Assembly: GCF_988242995.1 (NCBI RefSeq)
Contig: NZ_OZ547043.1
Length of the DNA: 64,000 bases
Direction: 5' to 3' (one strand)
This document shows, piece after piece, positions 24,153 through 27,100 of the stretch. The number at the start of each line of letters is the position of its first letter. The first letter of the stretch is position 1. The position numbers were made by a program, and so were the translations under genes. The notes below the pieces were generated by a model. It did not search any database and was not told the DNA's origin. It saw only the letters and a program-made list of their open reading frames with translations.

Positions 24153-27100
24153 TTACTCAACAGGTTGCGGACGCGCAGGAGCGGCAGAGGCATGATGCGT
24201 TGCCGTATGACCACCTGCGGCACCTTTGCCTTCGAAAGCAAAAGTAGGGCGCTGCCAGTCACTGTGACGCGGTGCCTCCGGAACATATTCCGGTGCCGGA
24301 GCGCGTGTCATTGGCGCGGTAGCGTGGTTATGCTCAACGGTGACCTCAGGTTTAACCGCGGCTACCGTTTCAACTTCTGCTGCGACTTCAGCGACGACTG
24401 GCGCGGCAGGTTGAGCAACAACTTCAGGTTCAGCAACCACAACCTCAGCAGTTTCGGCAACTTCTTCAATATCAGCCGTCTCTTCCTGCGGTTCAACCAC
24501 CGGTTCTGCGTGTTCTGCAACTTCCTGGGCTACGGCAACATCAGACTCGGTAATCACCTGCGGCTGTTCAGTTACCGCGGCGGCAATCACTTCAGGATGC
24601 GTAGTTTCAACCACTTCAGGTTGCGGTTCGGCAACCTGAACGGGGGCTTCTACAACTTCAGCCACTTCTTCAACAACCGGTGCGCTAACAACAGGTTCGA
24701 CAGCGGCGGCGACAGGGACCTCAGTCACCATCGGCTGCACTTGTACTTCTTCCTGTTCGCGCTGCTCTTCGACCTGTACATCTTGCGGACGTACAATTGG
24801 ATAGCGGATCCATACTTTGCCAGAGGCCAGTTCCGGAGATGCGCACGCTACGGTCAACGGCATTGGCGATTGGGTTGGATAACGCTCGTCACGATAGCGA
24901 CGACGACGCTGACCACTCACGCGCAGGTGACGAGGCGAGCGGCGAGAACGACGCGGCATGCCACCGTTGTCACGGTTATCGGCATTGTTCTCTTCTTGCT
25001 GTTCTGGTGCAGCTTGCGCTACGACTGGCAGCGGGACTTTCACCAGTTCTGTGCGTGGAGCTGGCGCTTCCTGAACAATTGGTTCGGCAGCGACAGTTTC
25101 TTCAACCACCGGTGCGACTACCGCCTCTTCGGCTACGCTTTGCTCGTAACGCACTTTCTGATTGAGCTGACGCTGTTTACGACGCGGCTGAACCGGACGT
25201 ACACGTTCTTCCTGTTCGGTTTCCTGAACAGATTGCTCTTCAACATTCAGCGCCTTCGCTTCTTGTTGCGCCTGACGTTTATCATCGTTACGGCGGCGGC
25301 TACGTTCACGACGCGGCGCTTGCTGCTCGTCGGTGGTACGTGCTTTTTCCGTTACCTCAGCCTGCTGACGGCTCTCACGCGTCTCGGCAGTCTGCTGCTG
25401 TGCCTGGCGACGATTACGACGGTTTTCTTCGCGATTATCGCTGCCTTCAGTACGTTCACTACGGGTGTCGCGGCGCTCATTACGGTCACGGCGGTTGTTC
25501 TGACGAGGCTTGCGACGATCCTGTTGACGTTCCGGTTTCGCTTCTGCTTTCGGTGCTGGTTGCTCGGTCGGTTTGGTTTCTTCACCACCGCTGAACAGCG
25601 CTTTCAGTGCGCCGAAGAAACGGCTTAACAGCCCAGGTTGTGCAGGAGCTGCTGGTGTTGCCGGTGCAGCTTTAGGTGCTGGGGCTACGACAGGCGCGGC
25701 AGGTTCAGCTGGGGTTGGTGCTGGCGGCACATCCGGCATGGCAAAGGTAGCCAGCGCAGGTTGTTCCGGACGCTTACGTTCAGCGAACTCTTCTTCAGAC
25801 GGCAGCGCCATCGCTTCTTCATGCAGCTTCGGCAGCATGTAGCTTAAGGTTGGGGTTTCTTCCCCTTTGCGAACGCGCAGCACATGGTAGTGCGGGGTTT
25901 CCATCTGATCGTTTGGCACAATCACACAGCGCACGCCGTCCTGACGAGTTTCAATCGCATTCACTGCAGAACGTTTTTCATTCAGCAGATAAGAAGCGAT
26001 TGGCACAGGAACAATGGCGTGAACTTCCTGGGTGTTCTCTTTCAGCGCTTCTTCTTCGATCAGACGCAGAATAGAGAGCGACAGCGATTCGTTGTCACGC
26101 ACGGTACCGGTACCGGAGCAGCGCGGGCAGACGTGATGGCTGGATTCACCCAGTGATGGGCTCAGGCGCTGACGGGACATTTCCAGCAGGCCAAAGCGAG
26201 AAATATGGCTGATTTGAATACGCGCACGGTCCTGACGCACCGCTTCACGCAGACGGTTTTCTACCGCACGCTGGTGGCGTACTGGCGTCATGTCGATGAA
26301 GTCGATAACAATCAGGCCGCCGAGGTCACGCAGGCGCAGCTGACGAGCAATCTCATCGGCAGCTTCGAGGTTGGTGTTAAACGCGGTTTCTTCAATATCG
26401 CCGCCGCGGGTCGCGCGTGCGGAGTTGATGTCGATGGCGGTTAACGCTTCGGTGCTGTCGATAACAATGGAACCACCGGATGGCAGACGAACTTCACGCT
26501 GGAAGGCGGACTCAATCTGTGACTCGATCTGGTAGTGGCTGAACAGCGGGATCTCGCCGGTGTACAGTTTGATTTTGCTGCTGAAATCCGGGCGACCTAA
26601 TGCAGCGATATGCTGACGTGCCAGTTCGAGCACTTTCGGGTTATCGATAAGGATTTCGCCGATATCCTGACGTAAGTAATCGCGGAATGCGCGAACGATG
26701 ACGTTGCTCTCCTGATGAATCAGGAATGGAGCAGGGCGGCTTTCAGCGGCTTTTTTGATGGCTTCCCAGTGTTTCAGACGGAAGCTTAAATCCCATTGCA
26801 GCGCCTCAGCAGATTTGCCGACGCCAGCGGTGCGCACGATAAGCCCCATGCCTTCCGGCAGTTCAAGGCTCGCCAGTGCTTCTTTTAATTCGGTACGGTC
26901 GTCGCCTTCGATACGGCGAGAAATGCCACCCGCGCGCGGGTTGTTCGGCATCAGAACCAGATAGCTACCCGCCAGACTGATAAAGGTGGTTAATGCCGCG
27001 CCTTTGTTGCCGCGCTCTTCTTTATCGATCTGAACAATGACTTCCTGACCTTCACGCAACACATCTTTAATGTTGGGACGACCATGAGCACTGTAGTTAG

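Follow-up and report, generated by a model that had tools for sequence, protein, structure and literature searches.

The 487-codon open reading frame (ORF) at 24165..25628 (+), which runs from a TTG start to a TAA stop, is almost certainly a non-coding shadow ORF: codon for codon, it is the reverse complement of the part of rne that encodes the C-terminal scaffold half. As a run of codons it does exist, and it is the longest ORF outside the greedy gene set in the window, by which we mean the whole stretch of 64,000 nucleotides that was analysed. Its frame relation to rne, the null model for its length, the absence of homology, and the conservation and constraint of its frame all support this reading. 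The initial annotation had likewise regarded the ORF as an artefact that the coding sequence of rne produces, rather than as a nested gene, a judgement that the codon usage, homology, promoter, conservation and selection tests described here bear out. The cause lies in the amino-acid composition of the host protein plus its choice of codons, and not in GC skew or repeats. Judged from the sequence, the ORF is probably neither transcribed nor translated.

Mirror frame of the rne scaffold region

The true gene at this locus is rne, encoding ribonuclease E (1,061 amino acids; 24153..27338, -), whose C-terminal half yields the ORF. The rne product matches the NCBIfam equivalog NF008074 over residues 1–1061 with 2010.6 bits (cut-off 908) and contains the Pfam domains PF10150, PF20833, PF00575 and PF12111 (RNase_E_G, S1, PNPase_C / PNPase-binding). 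RefSeq annotates only flgL, rne and rluC here, and the E. coli records examined give only rne at the position of the ORF. The ORF list and the equivalog match agree with the initial annotation that the longest unexplained ORF is antisense to the C-terminal half of rne. Indeed, the ORF sits wholly inside the gene, overlapping codons 571–1058 in its non-catalytic C-terminal half.

The two reading frames are exact codon complements (frame -1), codon position 1 of the ORF facing codon position 3 of rne. In this relation antisense stops come only from the rne codons TTA and CTA (Leu) and TCA (Ser). All 12 such codons of rne lie at or before codon 571, and the last of them, the TTA at codon 571 itself (CTG in the compared locus L039), is the complement of the TAA that ends the ORF (25626..25628, +). 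The 490 codons that follow (572–1061) specify 9 Leu and 18 Ser residues, with zero TTA, CTA or TCA among them, and it is because these residues avoid the three codons that the mirror frame remains free of stops all the way between the end of rne and codon 571. The full stop-free span (24150..25625, +) comprises 492 codons, or 491 if counting begins opposite the stop codon of rne, and is bounded by TAA at 24147–24149 and TAA at 25626–25628. The other two plus-strand frames contain 20 and 9 stops over the same region. Five antisense ORFs of at least 200 amino acids occur in the window, one of them a 374-residue ORF opposite ptsG, and all five occupy the -1 frame. Opposite the catalytic domain, one compared locus carries a mirror ORF of 373 amino acids.

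The richness of the C-terminal half in Arg, Pro, Glu and Ala, remarked on before, is evident from its 532 residues (A 80, E 75, V 67, P 60, R 54, Q 45). A scaffold in which Ala, Glu, Val, Pro, Arg and Gln predominate, with few Leu and Ser and all of these in codons that are not stop complements, leaves its mirror frame open. The antisense translation is biased, as had also been noticed (F 13.6%, L 13.3%, R 13.1%, T 9.7% and C 3.9%, with K, P and E nearly absent); this product, rich in F, L, R, T and C, is simply the complement of GAA/GAG, CAG, CGN, GCN and GTN codons. The GC skew and repetitiveness that the initial annotation had invoked do not account for the ORF. Skew on the sense strand is +0.027 (-0.13 to +0.12 across the region), tandem repeats are negligible, amounting to two weak arrays of 56 and 24 nucleotides, and the frame has 0 stops where 10.1 are predicted by a position-specific base-composition model.

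Expected length of the open frame

How surprising the ORF appears depends on the null against which it is judged. TTA, CTA and TCA make up 2.24% of codons window-wide, and at that rate the probability of a 490-codon gap is 1.5e-5. Given the residues that rne encodes, the probability that codons 572–1061 hold no stop-complement codon is 0.028 with the codon usage of the window and 0.067 with that of the rne N-terminal half. Synonymous resampling of rne gives a median longest mirror-frame run of 253–271 codons, and runs of at least 490 codons with a probability of 0.034–0.074. For an E. coli allele in which the frame extends to 564 codons the null probability is 0.008–0.02, nominally significant before correction for multiple tests. 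The length of the ORF is compatible with the amino-acid sequence and codon usage of its host; it is not significant after correction for the 54 genes of the window and is unremarkable, since with 54 genes one such long mirror ORF is expected. For long ORFs in frame -1, the appropriate null is one that takes the Leu and Ser content of the host protein as given, and not one built on base composition.

This behaviour is that of known frame -1 shadow ORFs. Long antiparallel ORFs in this frame go back to Merino et al. 1994, as cited in the available text of PMC3454372 (Mir et al. 2012), which itself reports that codon bias dominates the lengths of frame -1 ORFs. A later study (10.1101/724807) expressed the frame -1 null as (1-pLeu)^NLeu x (1-pSer)^NSer and found no negative selection on the products. 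The rne ORF shares with these cases the frame, the mechanism (stops opposite TTA, CTA and TCA), the null formula and the outcome. It differs in that Leu and Ser scarcity in a disordered scaffold domain is the main driver here, not strong codon optimization of a highly expressed gene, and with 487–564 codons it stands at the long end of the 70–350 amino-acid range (10.1101/724807).

We also considered that selection on rne itself holds the mirror frame open, TTA, CTA and TCA being rare codons avoided for translational reasons. Codon optimization is the usual account of long -1 ORFs opposite expressed genes (10.1101/724807), and TCA accounts for 3.8% of Ser codons in rne, against a window average of 10.7%. 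Across 80 Enterobacterales, however, the C-terminal half of rne contains 692 stop-complement codons where 517 are expected from N-terminal usage, so that no special avoidance of TTA, CTA and TCA is seen in the scaffold region. Moreover, most of the effect comes from the scarcity of Leu and Ser and not from codon choice, taking these residues into account being what raises the probability from 1.5e-5 to 0.03–0.07. Avoidance of rare codons is disfavoured, and we regard it as improbable. Fully open frames across the same 80 species number 4, against 6.9 expected, and openness of the frame is not conserved beyond expectation in relatives.

Coding signals, selection and transcription

Less probable than codon avoidance, and in our view very unlikely, is that the ORF represents a young antisense gene, confined to E. 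coli, that overprints the scaffold part of rne and is translated from ATG 24192 via AGGAG 24177, in the manner of olg1 and olg2. The codon usage of the ORF speaks against this. Its coding score is -0.03 bits per codon, compared with 0.31 +/- 0.12 for genes, 0.07 +/- 0.09 for the mirror frames of genes and 0.40 for rne in the sense frame. GC content by codon position is 0.45/0.47/0.80, against 0.59/0.42/0.56 in genes. The comparison of both frames that the initial annotation had proposed thus comes out on the side of rne: codon usage in the ORF is non-genic, and worse than that of typical mirror frames.

An SD-like AGGAG (24177–24181) lies 10 nucleotides 5' of an in-frame ATG ATG (24192–24197), the element as a whole spanning 24177..24194 (+), a configuration shared by only 1.7% of the antisense ATGs of the window. 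The same nucleotides complement the rne codons for ...HHASAAPA..., the ATG ATG facing the His-His codons CAT CAT. AGGAG and ATG are equally conserved in E. albertii, despite the frame being broken five times there, and are absent from distant genera in which the frame is open. We did not take the pair as evidence of a start signal, conserved codons of the RNase E C-terminal peptide being sufficient to explain it. An upstream promoter or SD sequence had been named beforehand as a finding that would speak for a gene; the SD-like motif is nominally present, though explained by the RNase E peptide. No promoter-like site occurs at 24040–24165, between the flgL terminator and the ORF. That terminator-like hairpin (24000..24038, +; a 12-pair stem with nine GC pairs and a TTTTTTT tail) lies upstream and would halt plus-strand read-through from flgL ahead of the ORF. 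On the opposite strand, rne has a terminator-like hairpin of its own (24111..24134, -), a 10-pair stem followed by TTTTATTT.

In favour of an overprinted gene, the frame runs without a stop through 468 codons or more in every one of the nine E. coli alleles sampled, and the 564-codon allele has the low null probability given above. Yet this probability fails correction for the roughly 54 genes of the window, all the more for a whole genome. Where the frame ends varies within E. coli, at 564, 491 or 468 codons among the nine alleles, 564 being the commoner, and the C-terminal 73–96 residues of any product would be dispensable in this species. Five stops interrupt the frame in E. albertii, and a cryptic-clade strain has it broken at another site.

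Sense dN/dS in rne is 0.06–0.12 (0 in one near-identical allele pair), compared with 0.6–2.8 in the antisense frame, and amino-acid identity is 90–92% in the sense frame versus 72–74% in the antisense frame. OLGenie-style dNN/dNS for the ORF is 0.28–0.40 (95% CI 0.15–0.69, excluding 1), which taken by itself would indicate constraint. Controls whose mirror frames are certainly non-coding and carry stops give 0.41–0.65, with the ORF at the low end, and the pair of E. albertii and L039 also gives 0.28, with five frame stops in E. albertii and one in L039. We took the low ratio as a probable generic bias and not as a sign of constraint. A dNN/dNS below 1 in this frame is no evidence of coding unless controls accompany it, because stop-riddled frames give 0.4–0.65. 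These comparisons support the view that purifying selection on the ORF product would not exceed the control level. Since the SD/ATG and the low dNN/dNS both persist in E. albertii despite its broken frame, RNase E is the probable source of these signals.

Antisense genes of similar size in frame -1 have been claimed with Ribo-seq and mass spectrometry (PMC8850804), namely olg1 and olg2 of Pseudomonas aeruginosa (Kreitmeier et al. 2022), which have RNA-seq support as well and a resampling P < 1e-10; for olg2 a sigma-70 promoter is predicted, according to the available text of that paper. Like them, the rne ORF is antisense in frame -1 within a host gene and taxonomically restricted, with an overlap of 1,464 nucleotides compared with their 957 and 1,536. 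Unlike them, it is known from sequence alone, has a P of 0.01–0.07, many orders of magnitude weaker, lacks a promoter-like site, has non-genic codon usage and ends at a polymorphic position. Antisense overlapping genes of enterohaemorrhagic E. coli are another point of reference: in the available text of the respective reports, pop opposite ompA (PMC7103648), ano (PMC5960689; frame -3) and laoB (PMC5810103) measure 186–603 bp, and it was through RNA-seq or Ribo-seq signals that each first came to light. The rne ORF resembles these three in lying within an annotated E. coli gene on the opposite strand, and differs in that they are short and were found from expression signals. That the ORF is specifically a recent E. 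coli gene of about 480–560 amino acids, with low-level translation that starts at ATG 24192 and uses AGGAG 24177, is hardly credible and less probable still than overprinting in general; if true, no antisense overlapping gene of E. coli would be longer, and its host is an essential gene.

A functional non-coding antisense RNA that modulates rne mRNA, to which the ORF would be incidental, seems to us just as unlikely as an overprinted gene: antisense transcription is pervasive in enteric bacteria, according to the available text of PMC3419515, and a weak promoter-like match (9/12 positions) lies within the ORF at 24769–24797 (+), but the region has few promoter-like matches, and these are weak (three, just one of them relevant, against 0.9 +/- 1.0 in shuffles), Rfam has no family match on either strand of 23900–27362 (the sole match being an rne 5'-UTR element further upstream), which led us to reject a structured RNA for both strands around the ORF, and dS in the C-terminal half of rne (0.41–0.54) at least equals that in the N-terminal half (0.35–0.43), so that no extra constraint acts at the nucleotide level.

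Database matches opposite rne

The remaining support for a non-coding shadow ORF comes from homology, which the initial annotation had also proposed as a check. The ORF product has no match in Pfam, NCBIfam or PDB at E <= 1. In large databases, a search of 5.8 billion proteins gives 5 matches and one of 1.84 billion representatives gives 46. All 47 of the matches that were mapped back fall on rne, and for 45 the best match is in the mirror frame. We rejected homology to a real family, the large-database matches being calls made opposite rne. This also tells against an overprinted gene, whose only homologues are such calls; those that could be traced come from assemblies in which rne is broken by frameshifts or N-gaps. 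In the largest catalogue of E. coli antisense overlapping genes (10.1101/2020.11.18.388249), neither rne nor its locus tags or neighbours are named in the text and 18 supplements, the tables of which may use other identifiers.

The ORF is an ordinary instance of a well-known annotation trap, and the main value of recognizing it is annotation hygiene. It is long enough for gene callers to report it wherever frameshifts or scaffold gaps disrupt rne. Protein databases hold 46 representative clusters of such calls in all, including clusters of 268 and 23 members. A predicted structure would not tell such calls from real proteins, as AlphaFold2, according to a preprint, gave high pLDDT to short spurious sequences. 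The rne calls resemble the spurious-protein sets of AntiFam and Spurio (PMC5897793) in that the 'family' consists of gene-caller outputs opposite a real gene, in the traced cases where rne is broken. One database entry was chimeric and carried the name 'ribonuclease E, partial'.

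The ORF and its host gene

The 487-aa ORF at 24165..25628 (+), with a TTG start, is at the position first assigned to it and is indeed the longest of the ORFs of at least 200 aa outside the greedy gene set of the window. It lies in a stop-free span of 492 codons (24150..25625, +) with a TAA on either side (24147-24149 and 25626-25628), and is entirely contained in the gene for ribonuclease E (rne; 24153..27338, -; 1061 aa; NCBIfam equivalog NF008074, 2010 bits). The RNase E product has Pfam S1, RNase_E_G and thioredoxin-like domains and a C-terminal PNPase-binding motif; flgK and flgL are the upstream neighbours and rluC the downstream one. 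The window is from E. coli, and the ORF stretch is matched in 5,425 of 5,426 complete genomes. RefSeq annotates flgL, rne and rluC at the locus, and no gene at the ORF. The ORF is almost certainly an artefact and not a nested gene, a reading of the initial annotation supported by codon usage, homology, conservation and selection tests.

Position 24165 falls on the third base of rne codon 1058. Hence, the ORF is the codon-by-codon reverse complement of rne codons 571-1058, the frame we term the mirror frame (frame -1). Antisense TAA, TAG and TGA in this frame need sense TTA, CTA and TCA (stop-complement codons) and have no other source. rne contains twelve such codons, none beyond codon 571, a TTA that provides the TAA stop of the ORF. 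Leu and Ser number 54 and 35 in the catalytic half (codons 1-529) against 9 and 18 in codons 572-1061, where TTA, CTA and TCA are never used. The remaining two plus-strand frames of the same DNA contain 20 and 9 stops.

The product is strongly skewed, as had been claimed (F 13.6%, L 13.3%, R 13.1%, T 9.7%, C 3.9%; K, P and E almost absent), a composition that results from complementing the codons for Glu, Gln, Arg, Ala, Val and Pro that dominate the scaffold region, the non-catalytic C-terminal half of rne. The initial annotation had blamed a GC-skewed, repetitive coding region for the ORF, and here it needs correcting: sense-strand GC skew is only +0.027 and tandem repeats are negligible. The asymmetry present in the region is of A over T (AT skew +0.20). 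Nucleotide composition as an explanation is rejected, since 10.1 stop-complement codons are still expected under a position-specific base-composition model of the region. The corrected cause is a mirror frame that stays open because Leu and Ser are scarce in the scaffold domain of RNase E, together with codon choice there. Long frame -1 ORFs opposite bacterial genes have long been described and ascribed mainly to codon usage (Merino et al. 1994, cited in Mir et al. 2012, PMC3454372).

Length, coding potential and expression signals

At the window-wide frequency of stop-complement codons (2.24% of codons), the probability of 490 codons free of them is 1.5e-5. When the RNase E amino-acid sequence was fixed and synonymous codons were resampled, the probability of no stop-complement codon became 0.028 with usage from the window and 0.067 with usage from the rne N-terminal part. 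The longest resampled mirror-frame run had a median of 253-271 codons, with a probability of 0.034-0.074 of reaching at least 490; one gene at such a level is expected among the 54 genes in the window. The null probability for a 564-codon E. coli allele is 0.008-0.02.

Five antisense ORFs in the window reach 200 aa or more, and every one of them occupies the mirror frame. The second-longest, a shadow ORF of 374 aa (41146..42270, -), lies in the codon-complement frame inside ptsG (40840..42273, +), which has a single TTA/CTA/TCA codon in 477; this ORF has no NCBIfam match. Mirror-frame ORFs are also found opposite mfd (56212..56934, +; 240 aa), at 32333..33214 (-), where the ORF spans two plus-strand genes, and at 49008..49646 (-).

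Among ORFs regarded as real genes, P. aeruginosa olg1 and olg2 come nearest, having the same frame as the rne ORF and a similar size. Ribo-seq, mass spectrometry and a resampling p < 1e-10 support them (PMC8850804); for the rne ORF, examined here at the sequence level, the resampling P is 0.028-0.067. Neither rne nor its tags or neighbours appear in the text or 18 supplements of the largest E. coli catalogue of antisense overlapping-gene candidates (10.1101/2020.11.18.388249), whose tables may use other identifiers.

With a log-odds score for codon usage, trained on the other window genes and with real genes scored leave-one-out, the ORF reaches -0.03 bits/codon, against 0.31 +/- 0.12 for real genes and 0.07 +/- 0.09 for their mirror frames; the same DNA read in the sense frame of rne scores 0.40 bits/codon. 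GC at codon positions 1/2/3 is 0.45/0.47/0.80 in the ORF versus 0.59/0.42/0.56 in genes. Both measures, proposed at the outset as a check, uphold an artefact.

An upstream promoter or Shine-Dalgarno (SD) sequence had been named as a possible sign of a real gene. A strong terminator-like hairpin followed by a T-run lies 3' of flgL (24000-24028, +), and no promoter-like site was found on the plus strand between it and the ORF. One feature does speak for a gene: an SD-like AGGAG (24177-24181, +) precedes an in-frame ATG (24192) by 10 nt, an arrangement that 11 of the 634 antisense ATGs in the window show. This motif is the complement of rne codons for a conserved RNase E C-terminal peptide; it is kept in E. 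albertii, where five stops break the mirror frame, and missing in distant genera whose mirror frame is open by chance. Sigma-70-like matches number three in the region, slightly above the shuffled expectation of 0.9 +/- 1.0, with weak matches (9/12 positions) inside the rne coding region at 24769..24797 (+) and 24311..24282 (-).

Conservation and selection

A degenerate-DNA scan anchored on the Zn-link motif gave 120 Enterobacterales loci, 80 of which were retained as having a complete rne and N-terminal sequence sufficient for a codon-usage estimate. Across these 80 species, the C-terminal halves together have 692 stop-complement codons, where the N-terminal usage of each gene predicts 517, and the mirror frame is fully open in 4 species against 6.9 expected. 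Stop-complement codons are therefore not depleted. A cryptic-clade Escherichia strain has one mirror-frame stop, in a different place (rne codon 947) from those of E. albertii. In the nine E. coli alleles sampled, the frame has three different end points: six alleles, that of a K-12-like strain among them, have 564 codons, the window and strain 1190 have 491, and FDAARGOS_1258 has 468. The rne C-terminal half (24100..25700) is unusually polymorphic within E. coli: identity to the window is at least 99% in 43 of 5,425 genomes and 95-99% in 5,369, and pairwise dS between alleles reaches about 0.09.

The C-terminal half of RNase E is under purifying selection (dN/dS 0.06-0.12), and its dS (0.41-0.54) is at least as high as that of the N-terminal half (0.35-0.43), so that its synonymous sites are without a second layer of constraint. 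Mirror-frame dN/dS is 0.6-2.8, and amino-acid identity is 72-74% in the mirror frame versus 90-92% in RNase E. A 929-genome survey using the identical Leu/Ser null formula found long frame -1 ORFs of this kind to be generally without negative selection (10.1101/724807).

An OLGenie-style dNN/dNS for the mirror frame is 0.39 and 0.28, with bootstrap intervals excluding 1, which at face value resembles constraint on the antisense product. The NS class of this frame is made up of rne first-position changes and the NN class includes all second-position changes, which are harsher for RNase E itself. As a control, the same ratio was taken on the rne C-terminal half for pairs of close relatives with 10-30 stops in the mirror frame. 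Photorhabdus gave 0.41-0.61, Arsenophonus 0.52 and Yersinia 0.65; for E. albertii against the cryptic-clade strain, it is 0.28. Since these stop-riddled frames also fall below 1, the ratio probably reflects RNase E rather than ORF intactness. The Escherichia values lie towards the bottom of the control range, which is weak residual evidence for a young, E. coli-specific overprinted gene, which we consider highly improbable.

Database matches and the surroundings of rne

The ORF product has no match in Pfam, NCBIfam or PDB sequences even at E <= 1. A word-indexed search of 5.8 billion proteins returned five matches, and an exhaustive HMMER search of 1.84 billion representatives returned 46, short fragments for the most part. 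In tblastn of 47 of these proteins against the collected rne loci, each one maps onto rne, with the best match antisense and in the mirror frame for 45 and in another frame for two, as expected of frameshifted or chimeric calls; the homology check first proposed thus leads back to rne. All traced proteins derive from assemblies with a broken rne. The source genome of P0001 has both rne and flgL split in pieces, the source scaffold of P0003 (a cluster of 268 members) has a 100-N gap within rne, and P0005 lies beside the contig end on a scaffold with an N-gap. P0004 (760 aa; NCBI and UniRef; GCA_001621075.1, contig LVRK01000076.1, locus L132 3001..5282), publicly named 'ribonuclease E, partial [Escherichia coli]', is a chimera of RNase E residues 1 to about 604 and mirror-frame translation up to the contig end, suggestive of an inverted-duplication misassembly within rne.

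In L002, an rne locus from another Enterobacteriaceae genus, the gene called is not rne but a 373-aa mirror-frame ORF (4630..5751, +) that lies opposite its N-terminal, catalytic half. N-gaps within the rne C-terminal region of two metagenome scaffolds (L002 and L131) suggest poor assembly of this low-complexity stretch.

Just upstream of the rne start codon lies the autoregulatory element of its 5'-UTR (Rfam RF00040, rne5; 27363..27699, -; 260 bits, full model length). Opposite it, a 124-aa ORF (27419..27793, +), with no Pfam match and no annotation in a K-12-like RefSeq record, is probably another spurious antisense ORF; it may correspond to the old 'yceQ' call. A 106-aa gene is called at the equivalent place in the public assembly L132. 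In E. coli EC21Z-144 (NZ_CP101222.1; L130 1..220), a DUF1778-domain protein, not flgL, adjoins the rne 3' end, which implies a putative rearrangement or replacement at the boundary of the flagellar region.
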